Under the pieces are notes generated by a model that did no database searches, was not told where the DNA came from, and worked only from the letters and a program-made list of their open reading frames with translations. This document shows, piece after piece, positions 3,154 to 63,791 of a stretch of 64,000 bases of DNA. Both the position numbers and the translations under genes were made by a program. The stretch is from Candidatus Saccharimonadales bacterium (GTDB lineage Bacteria > Patescibacteriota > Saccharimonadia > Saccharimonadales > EFPC-124): NCBI GenBank assembly GCA_035457485.1, contig DATIBO010000006.1, positions 306,659 to 370,658 of the forward strand, read 5' to 3'. The stretch's first letter is position 1; each line of letters begins with the position of its first letter.

Positions 3154-3255
3154 TGAATCAGAACTCACATGATCAAGCTTGCTGGGCTACTTTAAATTTA
3201 CTTTGCACATAAAATTGGTATATATTTTTATTATCCTACCAAGGAGGTGATTAAT

Positions 3256-3411
3256 GTGGGTGTTTGTGGTGGTTGTAGCGGTCAGCGCACTGTGCCGTGT
3301 CAAGGACCGTGCAGTGGGACAGGGTTTATCCCTGGTACCAATATCCCGTGTCCGAAGTGCAACGGGAGTGCACGGATGACCTGTCCTTACTGCGCTGGCA
3401 AAAGTAGCTGA
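3256..3411 (+). CDS. 51-aa Cys-rich mini-protein with four DnaJ-type CxxCxG zinc-finger-like motifs
   Basis: Not in the track. GTG start 8 nt after AGGAGG. Translation: VGVCGGCSGQRTVPCQGPCSGTGFIPGTNIPCPKCNGSARMTCPYCAGKSS. An alternative overlapping ATG frame at 3254 is less patterned. Confidence 0.55.
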   Translation: MGVCGGCSGQRTVPCQGPCSGTGFIPGTNIPCPKCNGSARMTCPYCAGKSS

Positions 3412-3552
3412 TTTTAAGCTACTGCAGTAATGCATGTTAGGCCACTGTGACAAACACCGATCCTTAACGGATCTGCCATCGGCGGCTCTGCTATATTGGA
3501 GCTAAAGGCCGGTATGGCGGCGGTTGAGGATGTAAGGGGCCTTAATCGCTAA

Positions 3553-3590
3553 CCTGGTGGTGTCGTGATTTGCGACGCCACCAGGTTTTT
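3553..3590 (+). terminator. Rho-independent terminator
   Basis: A 13-bp stem (CCTGGTGGTGTCG / CGACGCCACCAGG, one G-U pair) followed by TTTTT. Confidence 0.65.
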
Positions 3591-3663
3591 ATAGTACTTA
3601 TTTTATTTTTTAAGGTTTTGTCGTAATATTTTTTAAGTCCCTTTTGTGAGAGGGGGTGAAAAA

Positions 3664-3816
3664 ATGCCCAACAAGAATTGCGGCAGATGCGGCGGTTCTG
3701 GATGGAGGCGATGCTCAAACCCTCAATGCCGAAGTGGCTGGGTGACCGGCCCTAACGGCGACAGCGCTCCGTGCGGCAAGTGCGGCGGCGCTGGCGGAGA
3801 AAGCTGCGGCTGCTAG
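3664..3816 (+). CDS. 50-aa Cys-rich mini-protein with CxxCxGxG motifs (DnaJ zinc-finger-like)
   Basis: Not in the track. ATG follows GAGAGGGGGTG. Translation: MPNKNCGRCGGSGWRRCSNPQCRSGWVTGPNGDSAPCGKCGGAGGESCGC. GC-rich. Confidence 0.6.
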   Translation: MPNKNCGRCGGSGWRRCSNPQCRSGWVTGPNGDSAPCGKCGGAGGESCGC

Positions 3817-4068
3817 TTGGCCATGGAGGCCGACAGGTGGTAGGTGGCATTTCTACCGTCAAACAACTGTCGGAATAGGTTGCTTTGCTGACTTCCAGAC
3901 AGTGCAGTAGTTTAGTACTGCTGCGGGATCTCCTGCTGGCGCCAAGTTGGGTGTTGGCAGGAGATCTTAATACTCGATTTTATTTGAACAAAAGCGTATT
4001 TATGTTATAGTTTTGTTGCAAGAAAGACTTAGCACGTTCATATCCATCACCGAACTTCGAGGTGTGCA

Positions 4069-4464
4069 ATGACCAAGTTCTCCGACCTGCTCTCCCAGAT
4101 ATGGGAAGCGCTCCCGACGATCTTCGACTTCTCGCGCGGCTACGACGTGGCCTTCGCCGGCAGCCTCGGCCTAACTCTCATCATGTGGGGCGTCTTCGCG
4201 ATCTGCGCCGGCCTGAACATGCGTAACGGCTATGGCAACGCCCCGGTTTCCACCACCGGTAGCTTCGCCTTCAACATGCTCGGGCTGACCGCCCTGATGA
4301 TCGCCGGCTACCTGATATGGGGTCGCTTCGGCGAGATCGTCATCGATGCGGTTGCCAGCGGATCGCCGGACATGGCCGTCCAGGCGCTGGGAACTTGCCT
4401 GGCCGCAGTTGTCGGCGCCATGTTCTGTCACATCTTCCTGACGAACAGCCTGGCGCGCATGTGA
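4069..4464 (+). CDS. GC-rich 131-aa integral membrane protein (about 4 TM), unknown function
   Basis: Track ORF with GAGGTG upstream and almost exclusively G/C-ending codons, unlike neighbouring grpE and dnaK. Confidence 0.7.
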   Translation: MTKFSDLLSQIWEALPTIFDFSRGYDVAFAGSLGLTLIMWGVFAICAGLNMRNGYGNAPVSTTGSFAFNMLGLTALMIAGYLIWGRFGEIVIDAVASGSPDMAVQALGTCLAAVVGAMFCHIFLTNSLARM

Positions 4465-4471
4465 TAACTGA

Positions 4472-4499
4472 CGGGGCCCGATCTTTGGGTCGGGCCCCG
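4472..4499 (+). terminator. GC-rich hairpin after the membrane-protein gene
   Basis: CGGGGCCCGA-N8-TCGGGCCCCG, a perfect 10-bp stem with a weak T-tract. Confidence 0.5.
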
Positions 4500-4534
4500 G
4501 ACGGTCTTTCTTGCAAGATCATTGAAATTATTAA

Positions 4535-4561
4535 TTGGCACTCTTGACTAGTGAGTGCCAA
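4535..4561. promoter_or_regulatory. CIRCE operator 1 upstream of dnaK
   Basis: TTGGCACTC-N9-GAGTGCCAA, a perfect inverted repeat. The spacer carries TTGACT, with TATACT 18 nt downstream. Confidence 0.7.
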
Positions 4562-4580
4562 TTTTTTTATACTAAAATAG

Positions 4581-4607
4581 TTAGCAATCCATGCGAGAGA
4601 TTGCTAA
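4581..4607. promoter_or_regulatory. CIRCE-like operator 2 upstream of dnaK
   Basis: TTAGCAATC-N9-GATTGCTAA, a perfect inverted repeat with CIRCE-like arms 19 nt after operator 1. Confidence 0.55.
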
Positions 4608-4654: not shown

Positions 4655-6538
4655 ATGGGAAAAATTATTGGAATCGACTTAGGTACAACTAACAGCGCGA
4701 TGGCTTACTTGGTTGCAGGCAAGCCTGAGGTTATTACAAACGCCGAAGGAAATCGCACGACTCCTAGTGTGGTTGCGATCAATAAAAACGGCGAGCGCCT
4801 CGTAGGCCAAGTTGCTCAACGTCAACGCGTAACTAACGCAAAAAATACAATTTATGGTGTAAAGCGTTTGATCGGCCGCAAGTTTGACAGCGATGAAATT
4901 CAAAAAGACCTGCACCTAATGCCTTACGAAATCGTAAAAGCTGGCGACGGCGTAAAAGTAAAAATGGGCGACAAAGAATATAGCCCCGAAGAAGTTAGCG
5001 CCATGATTTTGGCAAAACTCAAAGCAGATGCCGAAGCCTTTTTGGGCGAAAAAGTTACCGAAGCCGTTATTACAGTTCCGGCCTACTTTGATGATAGCCA
5101 GCGCCAAGCTACAAAAGACGCTGGTAAAATTGCCGGCCTTGAGGTTAAACGTATTATTAACGAACCAACTGCTGCAGCCTTGGCTTATGGACTCGAGAAG
5201 AAAAAAGAAGAAAAAATTGCTGTATTCGACCTTGGTGGTGGTACGTTTGACGTCTCTATCTTGGAACTTGGCGACGGCGTATTTGAAGTTAAAAGCACTA
5301 ACGGGGACACTCACTTAGGTGGTGAAGACTTTGACAACCGCATTATGAACTACTTTATGGAAGAGTTCAAAAAAGAGCACGGTGTTGACCTTAAGGGCGA
5401 CAACGCAGCCATGCAGCGATTAAAAGACGAGGCCGAAAAAGCTAAAAAGGAACTTTCGAGCACAAACGAGACCGAGATTAACTTGCCGTTCTTGACTGCT
5501 GACGCCGATGGTCCAAAGCACTTTGAAACCAAATTAACTCGCGCAAAACTCGAAGAGCTAGTTGCCGACTTGATCGAAAAAACAGTTGCCCCCTGCGAAA
5601 AAGCCCTAAAAGACGCAGGATTGAGCGCGAGTGACATCAACGAGATTGTTCTTGTTGGTGGTATGACTCGTATGCCGGCAGTTGTTGAAAAAGTTAAAAA
5701 GATCTTTGGCAAAGAGCCGCTAAAAGGCGTTAACCCAGATGAAGTTGTAGCGATTGGTGCTGCGATTCAAGGTGGAGTTTTGGCCGGTGATGTAAAAGAT
5801 GTGTTGCTTTTGGATGTAACTCCGTTGAGCCTTGGAATCGAAACCATGGGCAGCGTTACTACAAAATTAATCGAGCGCAACAGCACAATTCCTACGAGCA
5901 AGTCCGAGGTGTTTAGCACGGCTGCCGACAATCAGCCACAGGTAGAAATCCACGTTTTGCAAGGTGAGCGCGAGATGGCCGCTGATAACAAATCGCTTGG
6001 TAAGTTTGTACTAGATGGCATCGCGCCAGCGCCGCGTGGTGTTCCACAGATTGAAGTTACCTTTAACCTAGACGCCAACGGGATTTTGAACGTTACGGCG
6101 AAAGACAAAGGCACTGGTAAAGAACAAAGCATTACGATCCAAAACAGCGGTAACTTAAGCAAGGACGACATTGAAAAGGCGCAAAAAGAGGCCGAAGCTC
6201 ACGCCGAAGAAGACAAAAAGAAGCGCGAAGCCGTAGACGCTAAAAACATGCTTGCGCAAACGATTTACCAAGCCGAAAAGTTGGTAGCAGACAATGCCGA
6301 TAAAATTAGCGATGACGACAAAAAAACGATTGAAGAAGCTGTAACTGAGGCTAAAAAACACGAAAATTCGACCGACAAAGATGAGATCGAAAAAGCACAA
6401 AAAGATCTAAACGACAAGATCATGCCTATTGGTGCTAAAATGTACGAGAATGCGCAAAAAGAAGCGAAAACCGAGGAGCCATCCGAAGGTAAAAAAGATG
6501 AACCAGTTGAAGGTGAAGTTGTAGACGAGAAAAAATAA
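4655..6538 (+). CDS. dnaK: Molecular chaperone DnaK (Hsp70)
   Basis: [17 protein letters not shown] and [10 protein letters not shown] signatures. 627 aa. Confidence 0.98.
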
Positions 6539-19155: not shown

Positions 19156-19401
19156 ATGATATACCTAAAAACAGTCAAATCAATGACAGTTATGCTGAAA
19201 TATGCCAAAAAAAGCAAGTATCTAAACGTCAAGTTTATTGAACGTCTAGAATACATTACCCCTTATTTTTTATTCGATCTTAAAAAAATCGACAGCAATT
19301 ACAATGCGCTTAAAAAGCACCTAACTAACTTTACTATATCGACTGCCAATATTGCAAATGTAAAATTTACATCTTTTGCCGATCAAGAAGGAGTTAGATA
19401 A
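19156..19401 (+). pseudogene. Probable remnant of the N-terminus of an Orn/DAP-type decarboxylase
   Basis: The ORF contains ITPYFLFDLKKIDSNYNALKKHL. This mimics the N-terminal TPfyvyDl...l motif also present in the next gene (TPFMLTDLGVIRNHCRTFKRL). No catalytic region follows. Confidence 0.35.
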
Positions 19402-21802: not shown

Positions 21803-23997
21803 TTGATGTACAATTAAAGCATGAGCTTATTTTGTCGTACTGGGCAGCAATGGACGGTTTAGTCTTTACTTTGCTGCTGTTGTATTTTATTGAGGTCATA
21901 GGCTTTTTTGTAATTGCCGGCTTGGTTATATTGCGCAAAAGAACCTCGCTTTATGTTGGGTTCTTTTTGTTTTCGCTTTTTGTGGGAATTTGGCAGTCTA
22001 TGCAGTTTTTGTCGCAGGTTGTCTCAGCTAATCATGCGGCTGCTGTCGCGTTTTTGCAGACCTCGATTGTTTTTGCTGGCCCGATGGCAGCATTCTTTTT
22101 GATTTTTGCTAGGCTTTATACAGGTCAAAAACCCAAGTATTTACTGTATGTAAGCATCGGAACTCTAACCGGTTTGATAACGCTTTTATCCGATAACGTG
22201 CAGAATGTCGAAATTGATTATTTGGGGATTGGCGTTCCTAAGCTTGACTTGTGGTATGGACTGCTGATCGGTTTTGGCGCTTTTTGCATAACATCGGGAG
22301 TAGTTAAAATTATTTTGCATTTAAAGCATGCAAAAAATCAAAATGATCGTCGGCGCGATATAACTCTAATTACTGTGATGGCAAGTGTCGGTGCTTTAGT
22401 CACATTTTCGAGTTTTTACACATCCGACTTTTCCGCGAGTATAATCGCGCAACATTTAATTCCGGCTGCGGTTTTGGCTGCAATGTTCTCGTTTTTCTAC
22501 GTGATTTATCGCGGCTTGTTTGATATTCATTTTTTTGTGATTCGTGCTTTATCATATTTGATAACAGTTTTTATCTTGACAGTGTTTGTGATAACTCCAA
22601 TTGTGTTAGGTTTAAGTTATGTTGCCAATGTTAAATTGACTTTTGGTCAAGTAATAATTTTGGCACTTGGCACGGTCTTACTACTTTACTTGTTACTTTT
22701 GATTAGACGCGTTTTTGACAAAGTAACAAAGCGTGTGTTTTTCAGGGATATATATAGCTCGCAAGATGTCATTGACAGCCTGAGCGGCGCATTAGCACGC
22801 ACAATCGATCTTGATCTGATAATTCAAAAGAGTTCAAACATTTTAACGCGGGCACTAAAACCGACTTTTGTTAGATTTATTTTAAACAACGTACATTCGG
22901 GCGAGGATCAGGAATTGCTTAACACTATCCAGGAATTCTCGTTTCCTAAAACGAACTGTATCTTATTCGATGATTACTCGGATTCTAAGCTGCCGCGAGT
23001 AATAAAAGAAAACAAGGTTGATGCAGTTGTGCGTTTAAGATCAACCAGCGCTGTAATTGGCTATATTGTTTTGGGACACAAAGAGTCTGGTCAAACATAC
23101 ACGACGCGCGACACAAGGCTTCTGAGCACTGTATCGCAGGAGTTAGCTATTGCCTTGCAGAATGCGTTGCATTTTGAGGAGATCCAAAACTTTAACCTAA
23201 AACTTAAACAAGAAGTCGAAGACGCTACGGCTCAGCTTCGTGAAACCAATAAAAAGCTGCGTAAGCTTGACGAAATTAAAGATGAGTTTATCAGCATGGC
23301 CTCGCACCAGCTTCGAACGCCGCTCACGAGCGCCAAGGGGTACATTAGCATGGTTTTAGAAGGCGATGTGGGTAGGGTGACTCCACAGCAACGTGAGTTG
23401 TTGGAACAGGCTTTTAGCAGTACTCAGCGTATGGTTTATTTGATCGGTGATTTTTTAAATGTTTCACGCCTGCAAACTGGTAAGTTTATAATTGAATGGA
23501 AGTTATCTAATTTGGCGGATATTGTCGAGCAAGAGGTCAAACAGCTGCGCGAAACCGCGAAGCGCCGCGACATTGAGTTAATTTACGACAAGCCACAAAA
23601 CTTCCCTGAGATTTACTTGGACGAGACTAAAATCCACCAGGTAATCATGAACTTTATAGACAACGCTATTTTTTACACCCGACCTCAAGGCAAAGTCGAG
23701 GTCAGGTTATCCGCGCTACCCGAAGGCTATAAACTAGAAGTAAAAGACAACGGAATCGGTGTCCCCGAAGCTGAACGCCACAAATTATTTAGTAAGTTCT
23801 TTAGAGCTGATAATGCCAAAAAAGCTCGGCCAGATGGCACTGGAATCGGTCTGTTTATGGCTAAAAAAGTAGTTAACGCACTGGGCGGTAGTTTAATTTT
23901 TGACTCTAAAGTAGGCAAGGGGAGTACGTTTGGGTTTTTGCTGCCGAGTAGTTTGAAAGAAAAACCCAGTTCAATTATTCAGACTGATCAGAATTAA
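21787..23997 (+). CDS. Multi-TM sensor histidine kinase
   Basis: About 8 TM N-terminal region, H-box SHQLRTPLTS, and N/G boxes (NAIFYT, DNGIGV, GTGIGL). The exact start is uncertain. Confidence 0.85.
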   Translation: MSCCLIDVQLKHELILSYWAAMDGLVFTLLLLYFIEVIGFFVIAGLVILRKRTSLYVGFFLFSLFVGIWQSMQFLSQVVSANHAAAVAFLQTSIVFAGPMAAFFLIFARLYTGQKPKYLLYVSIGTLTGLITLLSDNVQNVEIDYLGIGVPKLDLWYGLLIGFGAFCITSGVVKIILHLKHAKNQNDRRRDITLITVMASVGALVTFSSFYTSDFSASIIAQHLIPAAVLAAMFSFFYVIYRGLFDIHFFVIRALSYLITVFILTVFVITPIVLGLSYVANVKLTFGQVIILALGTVLLLYLLLLIRRVFDKVTKRVFFRDIYSSQDVIDSLSGALARTIDLDLIIQKSSNILTRALKPTFVRFILNNVHSGEDQELLNTIQEFSFPKTNCILFDDYSDSKLPRVIKENKVDAVVRLRSTSAVIGYIVLGHKESGQTYTTRDTRLLSTVSQELAIALQNALHFEEIQNFNLKLKQEVEDATAQLRETNKKLRKLDEIKDEFISMASHQLRTPLTSAKGYISMVLEGDVGRVTPQQRELLEQAFSSTQRMVYLIGDFLNVSRLQTGKFIIEWKLSNLADIVEQEVKQLRETAKRRDIELIYDKPQNFPEIYLDETKIHQVIMNFIDNAIFYTRPQGKVEVRLSALPEGYKLEVKDNGIGVPEAERHKLFSKFFRADNAKKARPDGTGIGLFMAKKVVNALGGSLIFDSKVGKGSTFGFLLPSSLKEKPSSIIQTDQN

Positions 23998-24898
23998 TTT
24001 CCCTCCACCGTTTGATCTCGTCTTGGGTTGGCTTTGATAAACTTACGTCAATCTTAATACTACTAAGTAATAAATCTAAAGTTCTACTGTTAAGTAATTC
24101 AATTATTTTATCTTTATCAAATCCGTGCTTGTAGTTTTTGGCCCATACGGCAATGTGATTTTTTATCTGTTTGTATTTAGGGTGTAGTTTTTTTTGAGTT
24201 ATAGATTCACGGGCTAGTTTTAAAACTTCTTTTTTGCTGAAGGTTTTAGATATTAAATACCCTGCAGTAACTGTAGTCGATTCTTTTTCTTGTAGAGTGT
24301 CGCTCATTTTGCAGTAGGCGTATGTTTTCTTACGAAGCTCTCGACTGATCGTGTCTGCTAAAATCACCGACAGCCTTGTGAAAATTGCAAGATTCTCATC
24401 GTTTTGTCCATAAGCTGTCTTAGGTAATTTAATTTTAATCCGCAATCCATTAAAGTTTTCAAGCGCAGGAATAAACTTGTAGTAGTCTAAATTTTCATGA
24501 TCAGCGTCCTGAGGGTCTTTAAAGTTACTTGTTTTTTGCCAGTCGTTGTTGTAAAGCTTATTCAAGGCATCCTTCAAGGCGTCGATTTCAAAATTAATTC
24601 TGCATGCATCCTCTGCTTCAACCTCTTTTATTGCTGCAGTAATTTGGACGTCCTCGGGTGGCTGTAGGTTTTTTAAGGATTCCTTAAAAACACTAATTGT
24701 GTTGTCGTCGTAAAAAACAAACGACAGCTTAATTAAGTGGCCACTAAATGTGTTGGCAAAGATAAAGAAGTCAATGTCTGGTACGAACCCTTTTTTAGCT
24801 AAAGTATCCTCAAGGTTTGCAATGACAATATGCTCATATAAATGAGCTATATCCCAGTTGTGGGGTTTGTAGTTTTTTGTAAAAAATATTGTCTTCAT
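23975..24898 (-). CDS. Hypothetical 307-aa protein (very AT-rich gene)
   Basis: Track ORF, convergent with the kinase gene and overlapping it by 23 nt. No recognisable motifs. Confidence 0.5.
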   Translation of the reverse strand: MKTIFFTKNYKPHNWDIAHLYEHIVIANLEDTLAKKGFVPDIDFFIFANTFSGHLIKLSFVFYDDNTISVFKESLKNLQPPEDVQITAAIKEVEAEDACRINFEIDALKDALNKLYNNDWQKTSNFKDPQDADHENLDYYKFIPALENFNGLRIKIKLPKTAYGQNDENLAIFTRLSVILADTISRELRKKTYAYCKMSDTLQEKESTTVTAGYLISKTFSKKEVLKLARESITQKKLHPKYKQIKNHIAVWAKNYKHGFDKDKIIELLNSRTLDLLLSSIKIDVSLSKPTQDEIKRWREINSDQSE

Positions 24899-24908
24899 TT
24901 TGTGATTG

Positions 24909-24936
24909 CCTCACGCCCTCTTCGAAGGGCGTGAGG
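24909..24936. terminator. GC hairpin between convergent/tandem genes
   Basis: CCTCACGCCC-N8-GGGCGTGAGG, a perfect 10-bp stem. Confidence 0.5.
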
Positions 24937-24966
24937 ACTTTGTCTTGCTGATCGGGCCTGATGAAG

Positions 24967-42519: not shown

Positions 42520-43558
42520 CTTGCAATCCTTTCTTGCGCATTCCAGTTAGAGGTATAGATACATAAAATGTTGTACCAGGATGTTTAGGTGAGCCAGACT
42601 CTGAAGGTGATGTGTACCAAATTTTTCCGCCCGCTTCTTCTATAAGGCGTTTTGCATCAAACAAACCTAAACCAACGCCACGCGGGTCGGCGAGCCTAGC
42701 TTCTTCTGATCTAAAGAATTTAGTAAACATCTGTTCTCGATATCGTGGTGAGATTCCAAATCCTGTGTCTTCGACGGTGCAAATAACGTTTTTTGCTTGG
42801 TCGAGCGAGTGTGATATATTAACTGATCCACCAGGCGGGGTGTAGGTAATTGCATTAGAAACCAATGTGCGATACACAGTTCCAAGGATATTAGGATCAA
42901 CTTTAATTACGGGTATTTCATCATGTGACTCACGTATGTAAACTCCTTTTTTGTTTGCTTCATTCTTGAAATACTCTACGGCGCTGTGCATGATTTTGAC
43001 CACATCTCCAGGTACGGGATCGATCGCAAAAGTGTTGAGTTCGATTCGCGAGGCATAGAGTAGCTCATCGGTTGTCTCAATTGCCTTGAGTGTGGCAACC
43101 TCGGCCTCGAGTAAGTAGCTTTTCTGCTCGTCGTTCAGCGTTGGGTCATGTGAAAGACTCTCGACGTACCAACGAATAACTGTTAGTGGAGTTTGAAGTT
43201 GGTGCCCAGCGAGCGAAATAAATTGGGTCTTAGCATCGTCAAGCTCTTTTTGCTTTGTCATGTCGGAGTGCACCTCGACGAAAAATTCAACCTCCTTGTG
43301 GTCATCTAATACCGGAAAAATCATCGCTCGGCTGTAAAAAATGCTGCCATCTTTACGCTTGTTTTTGAACTCACCTATAAAAGGCTTTTTTTGCAATTTT
43401 ATAGTCTGCCATAGCTTTTTATAAAACGACTTTGGCATAAGACCGCCCCAAAGTTCTTTTGAGCCAACTTTTTTACCGACAACTTCGTTAAGTGGGAATC
43501 CAGTTAGTTCCTCGACGGCTTTATTGGCGTAAAAAACCGTACCGTCAACATCAGTCAT
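42503..43558 (-). CDS. PAS-domain sensor histidine kinase
   Basis: PAS (DVDGTVFYANKAVEELTG), H-box AGHQLQTPLT, N/G boxes. The frame stays open 81 nt upstream with no canonical start, so the PAS N-terminus may be clipped or use an unusual start. Confidence 0.8.
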   Translation of the reverse strand: MTDVDGTVFYANKAVEELTGFPLNEVVGKKVGSKELWGGLMPKSFYKKLWQTIKLQKKPFIGEFKNKRKDGSIFYSRAMIFPVLDDHKEVEFFVEVHSDMTKQKELDDAKTQFISLAGHQLQTPLTVIRWYVESLSHDPTLNDEQKSYLLEAEVATLKAIETTDELLYASRIELNTFAIDPVPGDVVKIMHSAVEYFKNEANKKGVYIRESHDEIPVIKVDPNILGTVYRTLVSNAITYTPPGGSVNISHSLDQAKNVICTVEDTGFGISPRYREQMFTKFFRSEEARLADPRGVGLGLFDAKRLIEEAGGKIWYTSPSESGSPKHPGTTFYVSIPLTGMRKKGLQDEKTV

Positions 43559-46333: not shown

Positions 46334-46399
46334 TTTTATTTGTGCGTTGTACATACACACATCGCACGTACCCACGAATCCCGCAAAGGGGGTGAATGA

Positions 46400-46516
46400 A
46401 TGAACTTCGACGAGGAGTACGAGGTCCCGGCCACGCAGGAGATCGGTGGCGTGGTGGAAATCACGCTCGGCTCGGCCGGCAACGACAAGAAGGACGACAC
46501 CCAGTACTGGGTGTGA
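46400..46516 (+). CDS. Lasso peptide precursor (38 aa; predicted 23-aa leader + 15-aa core)
   Basis: Not in the track, which shows a different frame. Translation: MNFDEEYEVPATQEIGGVVEITL|GSAGNDKKDDTQYWV. AAGGGGGTG lies 5-7 nt upstream. Thr at -2, Gly1 and Asp9. Immediately upstream of C-B1-B2. Confidence 0.8.
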   Translation: MNFDEEYEVPATQEIGGVVEITLGSAGNDKKDDTQYWV

Positions 46517-46524
46517 CGTCCGAA

Positions 46525-46556
46525 CCTCGAGGCCAGGCTTGCGCCTGGCCTCGAGG
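46525..46556 (+). promoter_or_regulatory. Perfect 14-bp GC hairpin between precursor and cyclase genes (attenuator/stabiliser)
   Basis: CCTCGAGGCCAGGC-TTGC-GCCTGGCCTCGAGG. No T-tract follows. Confidence 0.6.
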
Positions 46557-46579
46557 CCCCATCTACTCAAAGGAGTAAT

Positions 46580-48349
46580 ATGCAATGGGTTGCAGGGTTC
46601 TGGCCTCGACGAGACGCCATGAACAAACCTGTGGTTTTCCCAAAAAACTCACATGCCCACAATATGCTGTGGAATGTTGGGTACGAATGTACCGAGTTCC
46701 GTCGATTTAGCTCTGGTTCCACAACCGTCACGGTTGTAGGATCATGTCTGGCTACAGACGTCGAACTCAACGCCGCACTCCCAGCCGCCGATTCCGAGCG
46801 CTGGGAGATTTTTGCACAGTGGCCAGGTTCGTACATTGCCGTTGTGCAAAGAGCGCATGAAGCAGTAGTGATTACTGATCTTGCTGGGGCGAAACCGGTC
46901 TTCTGGGTAAAAACCGACTCTGGATGGTGGTGGTCGACAGCAGCGACACCTTTGGCGGCGTTGATGCGGTCAAAGGTTAACATTCGAGCACTTCTTACGC
47001 CTCTGATGGTGGCAGGAGTAGATGCGTGGGGCGGAGAAACGCCTTACGAGAAGGTGATGGTAGTTAAGCCGGGTTCGGTTCTTCGCCTGTCACATGACGG
47101 GCCGAAGGTCGAAACTTGGTATAAGCCAACGGTATTGTCGTTCGCCGAAGGGCAGCACAATTTCCGCGCCGCTCTCACTGATTCAGTCGGTCGGCGAGCA
47201 GCCCTAGGTGACATCTCTAGCGATTTGTCGGGAGGTATCGACTCAAGCCTTATTGCGCTGCTCGCAAGCCGCTTGACGGTTGTTCACGGAGCGACCTATG
47301 TTGATCCGTGGCAAAGAAACGATGACGCCGATTATGCTCGGCGCGTCGCAGGGTTCGGCGGAATCAGGCAAATTCTTGTCGAAGGCGACCAAACAACCAC
47401 TCACTACAGCGATCTCGATGAAGCGCCATTTACGGATACACCGTCGGCCGATGGGGTCTTGTTCGGCTACAACCGAGCAAAGCTTCAAGCTGTGAAGGCG
47501 GCGGGTTCTCGACACCATCTAACCGGAGCTGCGGGTGATTGCATGCTTTTGTCTCCCTACCCATGGGTGGCGGAGCTGTATAAGCACCAGCGGCTTCAGG
47601 CTCTCCGTTGGGCGCGCCAAGAAGCTCGGCGTCGTTTGACGTCAAGTCGGCGATTCATCCTCGCAACGCGTCGACTGGCTACAACATCATTTGCCAATGA
47701 AGCCGCAAGGCTGGCAGGCGGAGTTGAGGTGGCCGAAAAGACGGCATGGTCTTCAGTCTGCTGGCTTAAGTGGATGGAGTCCGCCATCTGGCTAACCGAA
47801 CAAGGTCGCTCGATGTTGTGTGGTCGTCTCGAGGAGATATCCTACGAGTTGGATCCGCCCGAGAATCCTGGCGCGAATCTCGATTGGCAAAGTCTTAGGG
47901 CTACGGCGATCGAGCGCACGACCGCGGTTGAGTTTGCGCGTTCCATTGGAATCACGCTCCACAATCCGTTTTTCGACACTCAGGTGATTGATGCTTGCCT
48001 GTCGATTCCGGGATATGAGCGTGCTCCCCTGGACACGTTTAAGCCGCTAGCAACGCTGGGCTTTATGGCAGAGTTGCCGGAGTTTTTGCGCCAGCGTCGC
48101 ACTAAGGGCGACTTTGCCGGCACGATGCTTCACGGTATTCTGTTTAACCAGCACTGGCTGAAGCGCATGATCGAAAGTTCGGCTCTGGTAGAAATGGGGT
48201 TGATCGACAGAGATCAGCTACGTCAAAGTGTTCAATCTGCGATTTACGGATTTGACACTCAGCTGCGCGGGATTCACCACCTGACTACGATCGAAATGTG
48301 GTTGAGGTCCCGCGATCTGCGTCCTACTGTTTGGTGGGAGATGCTGTGA
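46580..48349 (+). CDS. Lasso peptide cyclase (asparagine synthetase-like, C protein)
   Basis: 589 aa with the PP-loop ATP-pyrophosphatase motif DLSGGIDSS. AAGGAG RBS. Lasso cluster context. Confidence 0.85.
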   Translation: MQWVAGFWPRRDAMNKPVVFPKNSHAHNMLWNVGYECTEFRRFSSGSTTVTVVGSCLATDVELNAALPAADSERWEIFAQWPGSYIAVVQRAHEAVVITDLAGAKPVFWVKTDSGWWWSTAATPLAALMRSKVNIRALLTPLMVAGVDAWGGETPYEKVMVVKPGSVLRLSHDGPKVETWYKPTVLSFAEGQHNFRAALTDSVGRRAALGDISSDLSGGIDSSLIALLASRLTVVHGATYVDPWQRNDDADYARRVAGFGGIRQILVEGDQTTTHYSDLDEAPFTDTPSADGVLFGYNRAKLQAVKAAGSRHHLTGAAGDCMLLSPYPWVAELYKHQRLQALRWARQEARRRLTSSRRFILATRRLATTSFANEAARLAGGVEVAEKTAWSSVCWLKWMESAIWLTEQGRSMLCGRLEEISYELDPPENPGANLDWQSLRATAIERTTAVEFARSIGITLHNPFFDTQVIDACLSIPGYERAPLDTFKPLATLGFMAELPEFLRQRRTKGDFAGTMLHGILFNQHWLKRMIESSALVEMGLIDRDQLRQSVQSAIYGFDTQLRGIHHLTTIEMWLRSRDLRPTVWWEML

Positions 48350-48615
48350 AGCTTTCTCAGGATGCATACCCTGTGTTCGACAAGCTTACGGGATCGGCGT
48401 ACGTTCTCCTGCTCAGGACTGGCAAGTGGCGTTTTTTTAATCCGTCGGCCGGAAAGCTGTTAAAGCAACTAGCCGACGGTGTAGATCTGGAAACGGCTCT
48501 ACGAAACGTCGCCGCAGGATACAGGAGGCCGGTTGACGTCGATGTCTTAAGGATCGACATGGAGCCCGTACTTCGGGCAATGATCGACCTCGGAATCCTA
48601 GAGGAGAACGAGTGA
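48346..48615 (+). CDS. PqqD-like RiPP recognition element (lasso B1 protein)
   Basis: 89 aa from a GTG overlapping the cyclase TGA (GTGA). The track gives a longer in-frame ORF from 48298. Size and position fit B1. Confidence 0.7.
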   Translation: MKLSQDAYPVFDKLTGSAYVLLLRTGKWRFFNPSAGKLLKQLADGVDLETALRNVAAGYRRPVDVDVLRIDMEPVLRAMIDLGILEENE

Positions 48616-49028
48616 CAGTTAATATGCTGCCGCCAGATAGTTCTGGCAGTGGGCTGAGCCTTGGCTACAAAGTCCTGGGTTTTCTGAGCCTTCTTTTGGC
48701 GGTCACTTCACTTCGAGTTCTGTCCTTGGCGACGTTGGTTACCACCTTGATCAAGGTGAAGCCTGATCGTGCAGCCAGCTCAAGGCAGGCAGAGGACTAC
48801 ATCCGCGCTATTCAGTGGGCAGGTAATTTCTACTTCGGTAGAGTTGCCTGCCTAGAAAGAGCTGTCGGTGTCGCAATCCTCGCGGCCATGGTCCGCAGGC
48901 GGGTTACAAGTTGCATTGGTGCTCGCTTTCGACCCAACGAGTTCCATGCTTGGACTGAGGTCGACGGCACTCCGGTCATGGAGATCGAAAGTGCCGATTG
49001 GCCCTACCAAGCCGCGGTAAGGTTTTAG
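48612..49028 (+). CDS. Transglutaminase-like cysteine protease (lasso leader peptidase, B2 protein)
   Basis: 138 aa with Cys in GRVACLERA and His/Asp in EFHAWTEVDG. The GTG overlaps the B1 stop. Confidence 0.8.
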   Translation: MTVNMLPPDSSGSGLSLGYKVLGFLSLLLAVTSLRVLSLATLVTTLIKVKPDRAASSRQAEDYIRAIQWAGNFYFGRVACLERAVGVAILAAMVRRRVTSCIGARFRPNEFHAWTEVDGTPVMEIESADWPYQAAVRF

Positions 49029-57313: not shown

Positions 57314-57884
57314 CTAATTATTTGTATTAAACTTTATATCTGCCGCTAAGTCCGGCCGGTACTTTGCCATAAAGTCGCGTTCGTTCGGCATCCAAATATT
57401 GAGCCACAACCAGTCGTGATTATTGGCAATTGAAATATCGCGCGACATGCCACGTTTTGTGGCAACTTCGAGCGGGCAATCTACCCATATTTTATAGCCG
57501 TAAAACCTCAATATATCTGGGTGAAACATGCTTAATCCTTCGACAATGAGGTATTGGGATCTTGGCACAACACGCCACTCTCCAAGCCGGTCGTTTTTCC
57601 AGTCGTAGACTTGGTGACTAATTTTGCAAAGCTGGTTCAAGCACTTGTTTTTGCAAGCGCGGGCGATCGTAGCTATTCCAATCTTCTGTGCGATGTCGGC
57701 AACGGCTGATAATAAAGTCGTCAGCAGCGATTACTTCGGCATTGCCAAGTTTTTCTTTGAGCTTCGCTGCCAGCGTTGACTTACCCGAGCCGCCGTAGCC
57801 AGAAATAGCGATGATGATCGGACAATTTTTGTGTTGTTTTAGTTTTTGTATAGCAGTTACAATTTCTTGCATATTTTTCTCCAA
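57314..57884 (-). pseudogene. P-loop uridine-kinase-like NTP kinase split by a frameshift
   Basis: The N-terminal ORF (57618-57884, Walker A GYGGSGKST) and the C-terminal ORF (57314-57640) overlap in different frames around an A4 run (TTGCAAAATTAG). Confidence 0.6.
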
Positions 57885-58955: not shown

Positions 58956-59279
58956 CTAGATTTCTACTAGCCGTGCCAACTCATCCCAGAAGAATTTGTA
59001 GTAGGCCGGTTCGTAGTGCACCGGGTTGAGGCCCCATGGATGAGAAGCCGACCCTACGAAGAGCTGCTGAGGGTAGACGATCTGTCGACAGCCGGACTCA
59101 GCCTTGAACATATCGTCGACGCCAGCCCAGCGTTCATTCTTCGCACTGAGTCGCTCCGGCCCCGCAAAGCTTCCGTCCCCACCTGACTGGTAGCCAGAGT
59201 AGCTGAGCGCAAACCGAGCGGAGTTCAGAACAAGTACGGCGTTGGGCAGCTGGCGACTGTCCTTGCTGGAAGCGTTCAT
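58956..59279 (-). CDS. GC-rich hypothetical protein (107 aa)
   Basis: Start taken at the internal ATG (MNASSKDSRQL...). The upstream track codons are AT-rich. No recognisable family. Confidence 0.45.
   Translation of the reverse strand: MNASSKDSRQLPNAVLVLNSARFALSYSGYQSGGDGSFAGPERLSAKNERWAGVDDMFKAESGCRQIVYPQQLFVGSASHPWGLNPVHYEPAYYKFFWDELARLVEI

Positions 59280-59589: not shown

Positions 59590-59595
<6 letters not shown>
59534..59595. repeat. tRNA-Glu 3'-flank unit (master copy) incl. terminator-like hairpin
   Basis: AACAAAAAAGCCCCACAAAATAAATTATGGAACTCTTTCGTATCTGTTGATAATTTTGGTGA, duplicated at 53721-53782. Confidence 0.7.
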
Positions 59596-59664
<69 letters not shown>

Positions 59665-59729
59665 GTAACGGTATTAACAGATGTAAATTATAACAAAATA
59701 ATGATAATTGTAAAGCCCTAAAACGGTGA

Positions 59730-59771
59730 ACGCCCCGGTAGCGTGACAGGTTCGTCACACTTCCGGGGCGT
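59730..59771 (-). terminator. Compound GC hairpin after the SPFH gene
   Basis: ACGCCCCGG...CCGGGGCGT outer stem enclosing GTGAC-N6-GTCAC. Confidence 0.5.
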
Positions 59772-59822
59772 CTTCCGCAGAGCACTTACATGTTGCGGGC
59801 GCGAGCCATCAGGCTCGCTTTG

Positions 59823-60854
59823 TTACTTGGCCGGCGCCTTCGGGTCGGGGATGGTGATCCCCAGCCCGGCTCCCCCGAGGGAGAGCAGGCCGTCCGGCAG
59901 GGCGTTCAGCGCGTCGATCTGTGCGCAGCTCGGGCACGTGTTGTACCCGCGCTGGCGCGCCTCGTTCGCGTCGGCGTCCAGCACGGCCTTGGCCTTGGCC
60001 GCCTGCGCGGCGTTGGCGTCGGCCCAGGCGGCCAGCGTCTTGTCGATGCTCGTCTGAACCTTGTCGCTGATGACCAGTTCGACGCTGTTGAACACGACCT
60101 TGATCTCGCCGACCCAGCCGCCGAGCTTGGCCAGCTCTTCCTCGAGCCGCTTCTGCACGGCCGTCTGGATCTTCTCCCGGTTCGACGTCGCCTCAGGCGT
60201 CATCGCATCCGGGTTGATCACCTCCACGGGAGTCTGACCAGGCTTGACCTCGGTGGTGGTCTGCGGCTTGACCAGCTTGCACTTCGGGTTGAGCGCAGTG
60301 CAGTCGTACTTGACGATCTCGTCGCGGATGGCCGCGTCCGAGGCCTTGATCAGCACCGCGTCCAGGAAGGCGCGCCACCCCTTGAGCTCGTCGTACGAGT
60401 CGGACGGGAAGTAGAACTCCCCGTCGGCGCCCCGGTACTTGCGCGAGCCGTAGCTCGCGTCGAACTCCTTCAGCTTCTCGGCGTCACCCGTGATCGTGAT
60501 CAGCATCTGCCCCTTGATGCCGACGTCGATGCCGTCGCGCGTGGGGAAGGCGTTGTAGTTCACGCCGGGCTCGTCGGTCTTGTATGCGCCGACGAAGTCG
60601 ATGGGCTGCGGGGAACTGGGGTAGTACCGGACCTTCGACCACCAGCCGGTCCACTTGATGTTGGAGCCGGATCCGATGGTCATGAAGGGCTTACGGTCGT
60701 CGAACGGGCCGCCGTTGCGGACGACCGCGATCTGGCCGCTCTCGGTACTGGTGTAGCTGTCGAGAACGCCGACGAAGCCGACGCTACCGATCAGCGCGAG
60801 GAGGACGAAGAAGCCCTTCGTGGGCCCCGATCGCTCTCTCAGCCAGTCGATCAT
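59823..60854 (-). CDS. GC-rich membrane-anchored SPFH/band-7 (prohibitin-like) domain protein
   Basis: N-terminal TM, then GQIAVVRNGG...-type SPFH start, and a C-terminal Ala/Lys-rich coiled region. Start at the ATG after GGGAG. Strongly G/C-ending codons. Confidence 0.6.
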   Translation of the reverse strand: MIDWLRERSGPTKGFFVLLALIGSVGFVGVLDSYTSTESGQIAVVRNGGPFDDRKPFMTIGSGSNIKWTGWWSKVRYYPSSPQPIDFVGAYKTDEPGVNYNAFPTRDGIDVGIKGQMLITITGDAEKLKEFDASYGSRKYRGADGEFYFPSDSYDELKGWRAFLDAVLIKASDAAIRDEIVKYDCTALNPKCKLVKPQTTTEVKPGQTPVEVINPDAMTPEATSNREKIQTAVQKRLEEELAKLGGWVGEIKVVFNSVELVISDKVQTSIDKTLAAWADANAAQAAKAKAVLDADANEARQRGYNTCPSCAQIDALNALPDGLLSLGGAGLGITIPDPKAPAK

Positions 60855-61063
60855 GGCAAACTCCCAGTTGTGCATGAGCAATACGGTTGCTCACCCGGAG
60901 AAGATTAAAATCCCCTCATAAAAAAGCCAGAAAGCCCTGGCCGTCTTAAGAAGAGATTTTTGTCTTCAGCGATCTAAAATATACAACTTTTTTTACTAAA
61001 CGTCAACTATTTTGTATATTGTGCACTTCTCCTTTTAAGCTCGATCTGTTATCCTATAGGTCG

Positions 61064-62479
61064 ATGAACAAGATTAAATCTTTTAAAAGGGCAAAAATTT
61101 TAGCTACGGTCGGCCCGGCTAGTGACAGTTATGAGACTATCCTAGACATGATCAAAGCAGGCGTTAACGGCTTTAGGCTTAACTTTAGCCATGGAACTCA
61201 CGAGGAACGTGACATCCAGATCCCACTTATTCGCAAAGCGAGCCGAGAAGTTGGTAAGCCGGTTGCGATTTTGCAAGATTTACAAGGTCCAAAAATTCGT
61301 TTAGGCGATTTTGAGGGCGAGATCGCTGTTAAAAATGGCGAGATCTGGACTTTGGTTTATAAGCAAGACCTTAAAAGCGACAAAGAACTGCCTGTTCAGT
61401 TCGACTTAAGCCAAAAATGCAAGCCAGGCGAGCGTGTTTACATTTTTGATGGCAAAGTTAAAACAATCATTACAGCCGTAAACCCATCCCGCGTAACTGT
61501 AAAAGTCGAAAATGACGGAATTTTAATGCAGCGCAAGGGCATTAACTTGCCAGACACCGATTTTGGTGGTGATGTTATTACCGAAAAAGACATGCGCGAT
61601 ATTGATTATGGTGCCGACAAAGATATCGACTATGTGGCAATGAGCTTTGTGCAGACGGCAGAAGACGTCTTGAAACTTAAGAGCTTGCTCGCTGAGCGTG
61701 GTTCTCGCGCTAAAGTTGTTTCTAAAGTCGAGACTCAAGCGGCAATCCGCGAAGAAAACCTAGAAGCTATTGTTATGGCTAGCGACGCAGTCATGGTCGC
61801 GCGTGGTGACTTGGCGGTAGAAACCAGCCCAGAGATCGTGCCAATTGTACAGCGCCAAATTTTGCAACTAGCGCAAAAACACGGCAAAATCAGCATTGTT
61901 GCCACACAAATGATGGCCAGCATGCAAAATAACCCAGAACCAACCCGCGCCGAAGTTAGTGACGTTGCCAACGCGGTTATTACTGGCGCTGATTGCGTAA
62001 TGCTTAGCGACGAAACCGCAAATGGAAAATACCCAGTAGAAACCGTGGCCACAATGAAGCGCGTGATTATGTACACCCAAGACCACGCCCCAGTACGACC
62101 ATTGTTTTACAGTGAAGACAATCACAACACTCAAGATGCGATCAGCTCCGCTGCGATCACATTGGCTCACCAAATTGGTGCAACTGCGATAGTTTGCGAA
62201 ACAAAATCTGGTGCAACTGCACTCAGTATTGCTGCTCATCGCCCAAGTATGCCAATTATTTCGGTCACCTCTGACGCTCGCGTAGCTCAGCAGCTTTGCC
62301 TGATGTATGCAAACAAGAGCTTCTTGCGACCAGATGGCGAAACTGCCGGATTAACCCAAGCTCAAGACTTGGTTAAAAAAGGTACTTTACACAAAGGCGA
62401 TAAAGTTGTTCTAGTTAGCGGTCGCCAACCAGGTTTAATTGGTGGAACCGACACGATAAAAGTTAGAGTTTTAGAGTAG
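61064..62479 (+). CDS. pyk: Pyruvate kinase
   Basis: KILATVGPAS, GVNGFRLNFSHG, MVARGDL and ATQMM signatures. Start moved to the internal ATG (MNKIKSFKRAKI). Confidence 0.93.
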   Translation: MNKIKSFKRAKILATVGPASDSYETILDMIKAGVNGFRLNFSHGTHEERDIQIPLIRKASREVGKPVAILQDLQGPKIRLGDFEGEIAVKNGEIWTLVYKQDLKSDKELPVQFDLSQKCKPGERVYIFDGKVKTIITAVNPSRVTVKVENDGILMQRKGINLPDTDFGGDVITEKDMRDIDYGADKDIDYVAMSFVQTAEDVLKLKSLLAERGSRAKVVSKVETQAAIREENLEAIVMASDAVMVARGDLAVETSPEIVPIVQRQILQLAQKHGKISIVATQMMASMQNNPEPTRAEVSDVANAVITGADCVMLSDETANGKYPVETVATMKRVIMYTQDHAPVRPLFYSEDNHNTQDAISSAAITLAHQIGATAIVCETKSGATALSIAAHRPSMPIISVTSDARVAQQLCLMYANKSFLRPDGETAGLTQAQDLVKKGTLHKGDKVVLVSGRQPGLIGGTDTIKVRVLE

Positions 62480-62548
62480 CTTTATTACTAATAAGTTCTG
62501 AAACGAGGGAGCTGTGGCGCGAGGCCATGCTCCCCCAGTTTCGTTCGT

Positions 62549-63082
62549 TCAGCAACCGCCGACTGTGTTGAGTGGGACGCGGAGCTGATCGGCGTACCAC
62601 CGTCGAGTGTGTGGCCGAGTGTATGGCACGGTCGGAGTCTGAAGTTCCTGACGCTGCGACTGCGTGAGTGTGGTCAGGTAGTTCATCAGAATCCGATTGG
62701 AGTGCGAGTTGTTGGGCAGCCGGCGGGCGAACAACTGTTCGCACCAGGCATCCCACATCACTCGGTTGATCAGGTACACGTTCTTGTGCGAGCCGTTGAT
62801 GACCCCGTTGGTCAGTTCGCGAACAGTTCCGCGAGCGATGATGACGCCGAGCACCAGCGCGATGACTGACGTGATCGCCCAGAACGCAGTGCGCCCGTTA
62901 CCGGTGATCTCGAACAGCTTCACGATACAGAAGATGATGATCTGAAAGATCAGCATCGAGAGGCCCGGCACCCAGCCGTGGTTGTTGTAAGCCCAGGCCT
63001 TGAGCGAGCGGGGCTTGCGGCTGATAGCCACATACGTGTTCATGTGCTTCCGATCTGCTCGTAGACGAACAAAACTTGCCAT
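62549..63082 (-). CDS. GC-rich 2-TM membrane protein (177 aa), unknown function
   Basis: Track ORF with G/C-ending codons. An AT-rich, SD-less upstream region has TATGAT 5 nt before the ATG. Confidence 0.55.
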   Translation of the reverse strand: MASFVRLRADRKHMNTYVAISRKPRSLKAWAYNNHGWVPGLSMLIFQIIIFCIVKLFEITGNGRTAFWAITSVIALVLGVIIARGTVRELTNGVINGSHKNVYLINRVMWDAWCEQLFARRLPNNSHSNRILMNYLTTLTQSQRQELQTPTVPYTRPHTRRWYADQLRVPLNTVGGC

Positions 63083-63124
63083 ACTATATCATAATTTTAT
63101 TAAAATGTACATAAGTTCAGACTT

Positions 63125-63152
63125 CCAACTGCCAGCACGGGGCGGCAGTTGG
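63125..63152 (-). terminator. Hairpin after the 63169-63672 gene
   Basis: CCAACTGCC-N10-GGCAGTTGG, a 9-bp stem with no T-tract. Confidence 0.4.
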
Positions 63153-63168
63153 GTAGTCCTCGTTCTGG

Positions 63169-63672
63169 TCAGACGTTCTTGGCTGGGAAGGCGTAGCTGA
63201 GTAGGTTCTGCAGGGCGTTGTTCCGGTCTTCGCTGGTGCTTTCGGCCGTGTTGACCGACCACCAGAAGCCGGCATTCTGCGCCAGAATGCGCTCTGCCGT
63301 GAGCACATCGATCGGACCGACCTCGGTGGCCCGAGCCCGCATCATTTGGAGCCACAGCTTGTGTAGATCCCGGCGGATGATCGTGATGCCTGCGACCCGG
63401 TTACGGCTGATGACGTCTTCTGCGACGACCGTCATCCCGAAGCCCATGAACATCACGGTGAAGATCGCGACGACCAAGACGGCCAAGTACTCAAGGAGCG
63501 AGTACGCGTCTCCCGCGTTTGCGCGCTTGATCAGCCCATTCGTGATCAGGCCGAACACAAGAACGCCCCATGTCATCAGATGCGCGAAGCGGTGGTTGAA
63601 CACCCACTTCATCACGCTGAGGCGGTCGCCGATTGCGATACGATCGCCCTCTCGCCAAAAGACATTTTTCAC
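63169..63672 (-). CDS. GC-rich 2-TM membrane protein (167 aa), unknown function
   Basis: Track ORF with a GTG start after GGAGGAGGG. Its architecture is similar to 62549-63082. Confidence 0.55.
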   Translation of the reverse strand: MKNVFWREGDRIAIGDRLSVMKWVFNHRFAHLMTWGVLVFGLITNGLIKRANAGDAYSLLEYLAVLVVAIFTVMFMGFGMTVVAEDVISRNRVAGITIIRRDLHKLWLQMMRARATEVGPIDVLTAERILAQNAGFWWSVNTAESTSEDRNNALQNLLSYAFPAKNV

Positions 63673-63791
63673 TTGCCCTCCTCCAATTCTCGGAGTTGAC
63701 TCTTGTGGAACGAGTCTACGGCCAGTAATTATACAACTTAATTAAAACTTGTCAAAATGAATTAACCGCCTGCTTATGCTTAAATACAAGT

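Follow-up and report, generated by a model that had tools for sequence, protein, structure and literature searches.

We analysed a 64,000-bp stretch of a Candidatus Saccharimonadales genome (contig DATIBO010000006.1, positions 306,659 to 370,658; "the window" below always means this whole stretch), in which short GC-rich islets lie scattered through a backbone of lower GC content. The parent contig, of 889,392 bp, belongs to a small, soil-type environmental metagenome-assembled genome (MAG; locus tags VLA77_). The GC content of the window is 45.5%; seven blocks that a sequence-only reading of the window had listed as GC-rich have 55–66%, and everything outside them has 43.6%, so the AT lean ascribed to the backbone has the right direction but is mild. 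A log-likelihood segmentation (62% versus 43.6% GC) returned 10 segments scoring above the null maximum (16.7 in 30 first-order Markov simulations). They fall into seven loci and together make up 7,240 bp (11.3%) of the window (Table 1). The blocks listed earlier match the segmentation almost to the base, except that 3256–3680 is compositionally normal. The boundaries are sharp and at gene scale, as had been read by eye, and the spacers separating neighbouring GC-rich genes have 32–44% GC.

The islet units are mostly single genes, with one four-gene lasso-peptide cluster, and all are intergenic between conserved backbone transcription units. A Shine-Dalgarno (SD)-like site precedes each islet open reading frame (ORF) but 62549–63082 (the site is weak before the DUF6270 fragment), and most islet genes are followed by a GC-rich hairpin; on both points the sequence-only reading was correct. 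These 3' hairpins within the islets are non-coding and GC-rich as well. Among the annotated genes across the window, none was found with an integrase or transposase domain, in agreement with the earlier remark that no mobility gene accompanies an islet, and an Rfam scan of the window gave two tRNAs and nothing else.

Backbone genes have a third-position GC content (GC3) of 0.432 ± 0.037 (range 0.36–0.53; n = 55 genes of at least 100 amino acids each), and strong islet genes have 0.76–0.94 (z scores of 8.7–13.5 in six genes). Relative synonymous codon usage (RSCU) was computed over 1,209 codons pooled from the strong islets and compared with a small reference set. The correlation is highest with a Nonomuraea chromosome sample (r = 0.96), followed by high-GC viral contigs (0.91–0.95), a Verrucomicrobiales locus (62% GC; 0.81) and a Saccharibacteria locus (59% GC; 0.80), and it is -0.18 with the window backbone. 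The codon usage is therefore actinobacterial in style, as had been claimed from the letters. We consider it fairly probable that the islets entered by horizontal transfer, as modules drawn from a gene pool of high GC content and of Actinomycetota or actinophage type, and that they brought no mobility genes of their own.

Table 1. GC-rich segments (from the segmentation), islet genes and backbone landmarks in the window (aa, amino acids; TM, transmembrane)
Feature	Position	Strand	Remarks
GC-rich segments, islet 1	3680-3848; 4082-4504		significant
GC-rich segment, islet 2	24908-25195		significant
GC-rich segments, islet 3	29316-29934; 30029-30624		significant
GC-rich segment, islet 4 (lasso)	46363-49017		significant
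GC-rich segment, islet 5	59004-59274		significant
GC-rich segment, islet 6 (SPFH)	59724-60898		significant
GC-rich segments, islet 7	62504-63021; 63131-63656		significant
grpE	2713-3153		backbone, left of islet 1
Cys-rich mini-protein, 51 aa	3256-3411	+	four CxxCxGxG-like motifs, DnaJ zinc-finger-like; grpE-dnaK spacer; SD site AAGGAGGTG
Second Cys/Gly-rich mini-protein, 50 aa	3664-3816	+	GC3 0.69; in GC-rich segment 3680-3848
Orphan protein, 131 aa, islet 1 proper	4069-4464	+	3 predicted TM helices; GC3 0.86 (z 11.3); hairpin 4473-4498
CIRCE (HrcA operator) before dnaK	4535-4561	+	0 mismatches, 0 chance matches expected; backbone boundary of islet 1
dnaK	4655-6538		backbone, right of islet 1
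Gly/Arg/Lys-rich peptide, 70 aa, islet 2 (HSE29316.1)	24967-25179	-	GC 0.64, GC3 0.69; hairpin 24909-24936
Protein of 190 aa, islet 3a	29314-29886	+	3 predicted TM helices; GC3 0.81; hairpin 29904-29937
Predicted lipoprotein, 183 aa, islet 3b (HSE29323.1)	30012-30563	+	lipobox LSGC; GC3 0.79; hairpin 30594-30621
Lasso precursor, 38 aa	46400-46516	+	leader MNFDEEYEVPATQEIGGVVEITL, core GSAGNDKKDDTQYWV; GC3 0.92; SD site 6 nt upstream
Perfect 14-bp GC-rich hairpin	46525-46556	+	between precursor and cyclase genes
Lasso cyclase, Asn-synthase-like macrolactam cyclase	46580-48349	+	PF00733 E 4e-29; NF033561 315 bits (cutoff 300); GC3 0.56
PqqD-like B1 (leader-recognition) candidate	48346-48615	+	overlaps cyclase stop codon; gene call from Logan contig
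Lasso B2 protease, transglutaminase-like	48612-49028	+	PF13471 E 7.5e-16; NF033537 56.6 bits (cutoff 33); GC3 0.58
DUF6270 fragment, islet 5	58956-59279	-	GC3 0.69 over GC-rich part; PF19786 profile positions 145-222 of 222 matched
tRNA-Glu(UUC)	59590-59664	-	backbone landmark; promoter-like site 59714-59687 conserved in sister genomes
SPFH/Band-7 gene, 343 aa	59823-60854	-	N-terminal membrane anchor; GC3 0.94 (z 13.5); 3' hairpin 59730-59771
Orphan protein, islet 7a	62549-63082	-	164-177 aa; 2 predicted TM helices; GC3 0.76-0.80
Membrane protein, 167 aa, islet 7b	63169-63672	-	same orphan family as 7a; GC3 0.80; hairpin 63125-63152

The sequence-only reading had itself named assembly artefacts as a concern, and chimeras, in which high-GC DNA of the community was spliced into a Saccharibacteria contig during assembly or binning, would be conceivable for a MAG, soil communities being rich in high-GC DNA. 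In the Logan assembly of run SRR25158331, made with another assembler, a 45,435-bp contig matches window positions 19314–58349 at 100% identity without gaps (39 kb compared), and a second contig matches 59637–64000, again at 100% identity. Islets 2, 3, 4, 6 and 7 with their junctions are thus reproduced, and chimeras are very unlikely. Islet 5 probably falls in the rest of the 45,435-bp contig, beyond the 39 kb compared; the match leaves out islet 1, whose protein is also listed in the Logan collection. A chimeric origin would further require shared k-mers at 20 junctions, for 10 insertions that are exactly intergenic and have ORF, SD site and hairpin intact, and two sister genomes, assembled from other samples (SRR33619856 and SRR14877767), also have GC-rich genes at a shared site. 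We regard this explanation as extremely improbable.

These sister genomes, L006 (Pyk 86% identical) and L007 (79%), were located by a Pyk search, and the comparison with them covers islets 6 and 7. A Pyk scan of species-representative genomes gave relatives at 37–38% identity in unrelated phyla only and no sister loci. The distance from tRNA-Glu to pyk is ~150–170 bp in L006 and L007 and ~1.4 kb in the window (~1.3 kb extra), and the SPFH gene of islet 6 is missing from this site in both of these nearest sisters. By alignment, the left end of the insert lies at ~59717–59725, directly upstream of the promoter-like site of tRNA-Glu that the sisters share, and its right end at ~60900–60990, before the pyk promoter-like site, so that the whole insert spans ~59717–60990. 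The sister alignment revealed no repeats at the insert ends; a single tRNA-Glu copy or fragment is present, with no duplicated tRNA 3' end. Lying 5' of tRNA-Glu, the insert does not mark an integrase-type attachment site, and the description of the islet positions as classic insertion points is a weak one, as the SPFH insert is on the promoter side and not at the 3' end of the tRNA gene. The Logan contigs L005, L006 and L007, from three sequencing runs, all end at tRNA-Glu or within ~40 bp of it, which hints at strain-level variation or a repeat there.

The SPFH protein matches PF01145 (38 bits, cutoff 23.6) and phrog_200 (E 3.6e-14), and its hydrophobic segment comprises residues 14–32. According to an exhaustive HMMER search of 1.84 billion representative proteins, the family consists of 177 clusters, with a best non-self identity of 37% and metagenome singletons as top matches; the named organisms among the relatives are Streptomyces sp. 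and Nonomuraea only (the latter at 33% identity, from a tblastn plasmid search). Six relatives could be recovered with their contigs, all on DNA of 57–74% GC. They include one on a chromosomal-type contig (L098, 73.9% GC), one on a phage-like contig of 69% GC encoding RecT, a PD-(D/E)XK nuclease, Lsr2, a DNA methylase and Acb5 (L008), and one on a phage-like contig of 56.6% GC encoding Endonuclease_7 and DUF6197 (L095). Five relatives are on IMG/VR viral contigs (59–69% GC), and in one of these (L009) 8 of the 10 neighbouring ORFs tested match PHROGs. A tblastn search of 50,697 phage genomes with the SPFH protein gave nothing, exact look-ups of the protein as 343 or 352 residues retrieved no entry, and none of the relatives seen stood in Saccharibacteria DNA.

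The neighbouring pyk–pgk gap, with islet 7, measures 1315 bp in the window, 2039 bp in L006 and 753 bp in L007. As outgroup we used 40 more distant loci (Pyk 44–70% identical) from a metagenome scan with over-general Pyk motifs, whose yield was mostly relatives at 38–62% identity and few close sisters; 30 of the loci include pgk, and in 25 of these 30 distant relatives the gap is 20–120 bp. The sister inserts hold minus-strand membrane-protein genes with GC3 of 0.66–0.86, where the backbone GC3 is 0.37 (L006) and 0.56 (L007). Run against 1,270 ORFs, a profile made solely from the sister proteins ranked the two islet-7 proteins of the window highest (E 4e-7 and 1.3e-5). Family identity between window and sisters is ~25%, as compared to 69–86% for the flanking Pyk and Pgk. 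The inserts at tRNA-Glu|pyk (SPFH) and at pyk–pgk are derived, their signal is younger than the split from the sisters, and some sites act as hot spots, filled differently from one sister genome to the next. Homologues at the same locus and of the same GC content throughout the lineage, which the sequence-only reading had set against acquisition, were found in part: distant family members with high GC3 occupy pyk–pgk in both sisters.

Between the window and the sisters, synonymous divergence in pyk and pgk has reached saturation (proportion of synonymous differences, pS, 0.64–0.82; synonymous divergence, dS, at least 1.4 or undefined), and for this reason the GC3 of ~0.8 in islet 7 cannot be un-ameliorated ancestral inheritance. 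Either a high-GC pool has supplied the pyk–pgk site repeatedly, or some process actively keeps GC3 high there; the saturated sites argue for repeated replacement over old residence.

Of the two islet-7 genes in the window, 62549–63082 has a promoter-like site of the extended -10 type (63083–63111, minus strand; TGTACA-17-TATAGT, TG present) that abuts its ATG at 63082, and together with the missing SD site this suggests a leaderless start. A perfect TTGACA-16-TATAAT promoter-like site lies upstream of 63169–63672, at 63755–63728. The islet-7 protein model is of low confidence (predicted local distance difference test score, pLDDT, of 62), with two long helices and a helical C-terminal domain, and is too uncertain for a fold search. 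A third copy of the family at pyk–pgk, L006 3147–3578, matches P0129 (from another sample) over ~110 residues and then diverges; its GC3 of 0.66 is the lowest in the family, and it may be a frameshifted, decaying copy. Hidden Markov model (HMM) matches to the family in L046 and L026 (E ~0.02) vanished with a richer profile and were treated as chance.

A second explanation is that the islets are native, fast-evolving, lineage-specific genes, with GC3 kept high in place through selection that acts on synonymous positions or through GC-biased gene conversion where recombination has hot spots. An orphan family that is GC3-rich at a fixed locus in three genomes despite saturated synonymous divergence would fit it, and so would the backbone-like amino-acid composition of the SPFH protein, GC-rich tracts that run from the SD site to just past the hairpin with promoters in local AT-rich DNA, and a lasso precursor at GC3 0.92 beside enzymes at 0.57. 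However, the GC richness extends to the non-coding 3' hairpin regions, the borders show no bleed into pyk or pgk, and highly expressed backbone genes (DnaK and the EF-G-like GTPase) have a GC3 of merely 0.45–0.50. Modest GC3 differences are attributed to biased gene conversion in bacteria, and the shift from 0.43 to 0.8–0.94 is far above them. With the SPFH gene missing in the sisters and its family at home in high-GC genomes and phages, we find native origin quite improbable.

A third explanation keeps the transfer and moves its source: the proximate donors would be other Saccharibacteria or Patescibacteria, or their phages and plasmids, with accessory cassettes circulating within the phylum, swapped by transformation and homologous recombination via flanks such as pyk and pgk, and with a high-GC signature that is older or indirect. 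The distant members of one orphan family at pyk–pgk, present in each of the three sister genomes but not elsewhere in a set of 5.8 billion proteins, speak for this, as do the contig breaks at tRNA-Glu with their hint of strain variation. GC3 outlier genes, most without a Pfam match, also occur in distant soil Saccharibacteria loci (L031, L020, L023, L025 and L026); L031 3736–4863, for example, encodes a secreted trypsin-like peptidase between a tRNA-Glu-like gene and pyk (GC3 0.77, backbone 0.45). Most detected Patescibacteria transfers are within the phylum, and Actinomycetota are rare donors (PMC12455944). Against a source within the phylum stand the backbone GC3 of the three sisters (0.37–0.56), the codon correlation of the sole high-GC Saccharibacteria locus at hand (0.80, versus 0.96 for the actinomycete sample) and the SPFH family, not seen in such a context; besides, genes from an AT-leaning pool should lose their GC3 once synonymous sites are saturated. 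We judge it unlikely.

The mosaic runs past the window, since three more GC3-rich genes are found in the adjoining 8.5 kb of the same genome (L005 7582–8112, 8816–9364 and 12428–12763, with GC3 of 0.88, 0.74 and 0.89). These genes flank uvrD and a gene for a Zeta-toxin/AAA_33-like kinase, and the first two are missing from the matching stretch of L007. Inside the window, two short overlapping minus-strand ORFs (57314–57640 and 57618–57884), the upstream one with the P-loop start of a Zeta-toxin/AAA_33-like kinase, are probably a frameshifted pseudogene, judging from an intact relative of 177 amino acids at L005 8179–8712.

Islet 4 (46400–49028) is, as predicted from its genes, a complete lasso-peptide cluster of the actinobacterial A-C-B1-B2 type. 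A lasso precursor has Thr at leader position -2, a core that starts with Gly, and Asp or Glu at core position 7–9. The putative precursor here has Thr at -2, Gly at the core start and Asp at core position 9 (EITL/GSAGNDKKD9DTQYWV), and its leader spacing, read off the sequence, is Y-x2-P-x-T-x3-G-x5-T-x. The matches of the B1 candidate are weak and below cutoff (PF05402, 17.1 bits against 23.4; NF033530, lasso_PqqD_Strm, 22.5 bits against 70), with position and size as for a PqqD-like leader-recognition protein. Among plasmid records the cyclase has 46 matches, 45 of them in Actinomycetota, at 29–33% identity among the matches listed. We note that the GC3 of the precursor (36/39 codons) and the 62% GC of the hairpin after it stand beside three enzyme genes that are uniformly at 0.46–0.64; the precursor may have been swapped in later than the enzymes.

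Islet 1 had been placed inside the chaperone operon. CIRCE (controlling inverted repeat of chaperone expression) sites precede hrcA (1866–1892) and, twice, dnaK (the copy in Table 1 and a weaker one at 4581–4607), which means that hrcA-grpE and dnaK are separately controlled, and islet 1 in fact stands between the two units. Its orphan protein (HSE29292.1) has no match in Pfam, NCBIfam, PHROG or PADLOC. The two mini-proteins to its left consist almost wholly of CxxCxGxG-type repeats; both genes have a strong SD site and a terminator to themselves. The first matches BSD2_CRD, GRXCR1 and the DnaJ Cys-rich domain 1EXK weakly and, with a GC3 of 0.49, is compositionally not foreign, its GC coming from Cys, Gly and Pro codons. 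Islet 2 adjoins a 307-residue orphan at 23975–24898 with 35.5% GC; this ORF and another low-GC outlier (19156–19401, 30.5% GC) may be AT-rich acquisitions. In islet 3, the two genes are parted by a 74-bp spacer of 32% GC. The product of the first weakly resembles 2TM/SLATT-type effectors (PDLC00691, E 2.6e-5, the sole PADLOC match), and the structure prediction for the lipoprotein (pLDDT 44) is too uncertain for a fold search. Directly upstream of islet 3 are genes for an S24 peptidase (UmuD/LexA-like, 27077–27487) and a Y-family polymerase (ImpB/UmuC-like, 27929–29212), with a PNPOx-like gene between them. The DUF6270 fragment of islet 5 is a truncated remnant, as it matches the C-terminal third of PF19786 alone. 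Inserts are decaying, then, as seen in this remnant and in the apparently frameshifted family copy of L006.

The sequence-only reading had gone further and named the Actinobacteria host as the obvious donor. Codon usage and the empty sister site uphold a high-GC foreign source; no close relative was found, and the host as donor is unproven. Several searches bear on this. By exact look-up in 90% identity clusters (~15 billion proteins), seven islet proteins (4069–4464, 24967–25179, 29314–29886, 30012–30563, the lasso cyclase, the DUF6270 fragment and 62549–63043) are alone in their clusters, from this genome only. Nine islet proteins had no match in phage or plasmid collections (cys1, cys2, 4069–4464, 24967–25179, 29236–29886, 30012–30563, the DUF6270 fragment, 62549–63082 and 63169–63672). 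A joined tblastn query of twelve non-SPFH islet proteins, including lasso A, B1 and B2, against the 50,697 phage genomes gave nothing, nor did viral-contig scans with the lipoprotein 30012–30563 and the 4069–4464 protein. In a plasmid search with ten islet proteins and SPFH, the single match was that of SPFH to the Nonomuraea record, which is unannotated.

Acquisition from a high-GC pool, the reading we favour, has a number of points against it. The look-ups found no donor sequence; identity to the closest relative is 37% for SPFH and ~32% for the lasso cyclase (plasmid records only). The islet-7 family was seen only in the three sister genomes and one metagenomic singleton among the 5.8 billion proteins, in a search that depends on shared 5-residue words, which distant donors may escape. 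The Lys/Arg ratio of the SPFH protein is backbone-like (0.65, most high-GC homologues having 0.14–0.39), and the lasso enzymes are mildly GC-shifted (GC3 0.56–0.60, z 3.5–4), the precursor being extreme (p = 2e-6). The sister comparison reaches just two islets, both assemblies were probably built from the same reads, and the entry mechanism is wholly one that we infer. The host-donor form is further weakened by the phage-borne part of the nearest SPFH gene pool and by the origin of the genome, which is an environmental MAG and not a known oral TM7.

For modules acquired from Actinomycetota or actinophages, entry could be by natural transformation. Natural competence has been demonstrated in cultured Saccharibacteria, as has growth on Actinobacteria (PMC10633639). 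The window has a type IV pilus cluster (36259–43558; a pilin with N_methyl motif, T2SSF/PilC and T2SSE/PilB), which adjoins a response regulator and PAS histidine kinase pair and bears on DNA uptake and host attachment. The fragments would be integrated in intergenic spacers by illegitimate or flank-assisted recombination, deletion would trim them to SD site, ORF and hairpin, and transcription would start from AT-rich local promoters, such as the one before 63169–63672. The cargo (membrane proteins, lipoproteins, secreted proteins and peptides, an SPFH scaffold and a lasso peptide), as predicted from the sequences, plausibly serves the envelope, host contact or conflict.

A stronger version, a continuous and mobility-gene-free flow of transcription-unit-sized DNA of the Actinomycetota host or of actinophages into a competent epibiont, with the hot spots tRNA-Glu|pyk and pyk|pgk overwritten again and again, seems to us doubtful. 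If it held, a locus-bound, hypervariable, GC3-rich membrane-protein family would persist by replacement and not by descent, the exact SD-to-hairpin extent might point to the entry of transcript-sized fragments, and the islet codon signature could reveal which hosts soil Saccharibacteria outside culture live on. The hosts of nearly all environmental Saccharibacteria are unknown, and if the islets derive from hosts or their phages, this signature would allow host prediction from sequence only. A genome of less than 1 Mb can consist to ~10% of recent foreign single-gene inserts without an integrase, which bears on the renewal of envelope and conflict genes in reduced, naturally competent epibionts. 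The complete lasso cluster, in a Saccharibacterium, is a concrete and testable natural-product lead. The literature searched describes neither GC-rich islets nor a lasso cluster for Saccharibacteria.

Several known systems resemble the islets in part. Like integron cassettes, they are short, promoter-poor ORFs, each with a hairpin-forming site at the 3' side and with orphan membrane or secreted cargo. An integron origin was rejected: no integron integrase was found, and the units form no array but are spread across 60 kb, parted by AT-rich spacers that bear promoters. The window hairpins are also simple perfect GC stems, and two promoter-like sites lie directly upstream of the islet-7 genes. 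With integrase-borne tRNA islands, the SPFH insert shares compositionally foreign DNA that adjoins a tRNA gene and varies in content among relatives. This candidate was also discarded (no integrase, direct repeat or duplicated tRNA 3' end, and an insert upstream of the tRNA-Glu promoter), and the size differs, ~1 kb versus 10–100 kb. Phage morons are accessory genes that stand singly, each under a promoter and terminator of its own. The islets are similar in having one ORF with start signals and a terminator hairpin between resident genes, and the SPFH family is phage-borne (phrog_200 and viral contigs); unlike morons, they stand in a bacterial chromosome among housekeeping genes, with no phage genes nearby and no prophage.

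The lasso cluster has the gene order of actinobacterial clusters with an albusnodin/ikarugamycin-family cyclase and split B1/B2, with cyclase and B2 above the NCBIfam cutoffs, the leader pattern Y-x2-P...G-x5-T-x, and Gly1 and Asp9 in the predicted core. It differs in being in a Saccharibacteria genome, in a cyclase ~32% identical to actinomycete ones, in the weak B1 match, in having Thr in place of the usual Leu in the leader, and in having no adjacent transporter or acetyltransferase gene.

Horizontal import into Patescibacteria genomes is already known. A survey of horizontal transfer in aquifer MAGs (PMC12455944) likewise reported many single transferred genes and islands in small genomes of the candidate phyla radiation, amounting to up to 13% of genome length (11.3% in the window), from donors that were often unrecovered. 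There, transfers were mostly intra-phylum with Actinomycetota as rare donors, whereas the islets have actinomycete-like codons; the window units are mostly single genes of 0.2–1.2 kb, and their polarity comes from sister loci and not from tree reconciliation. What is new here is the many integrase-free, mostly single-gene inserts with actinomycete or actinophage codons, the polarity at two hot spots, and the presence of a phage-type SPFH gene and a full predicted lasso cluster among Saccharibacteria inserts.

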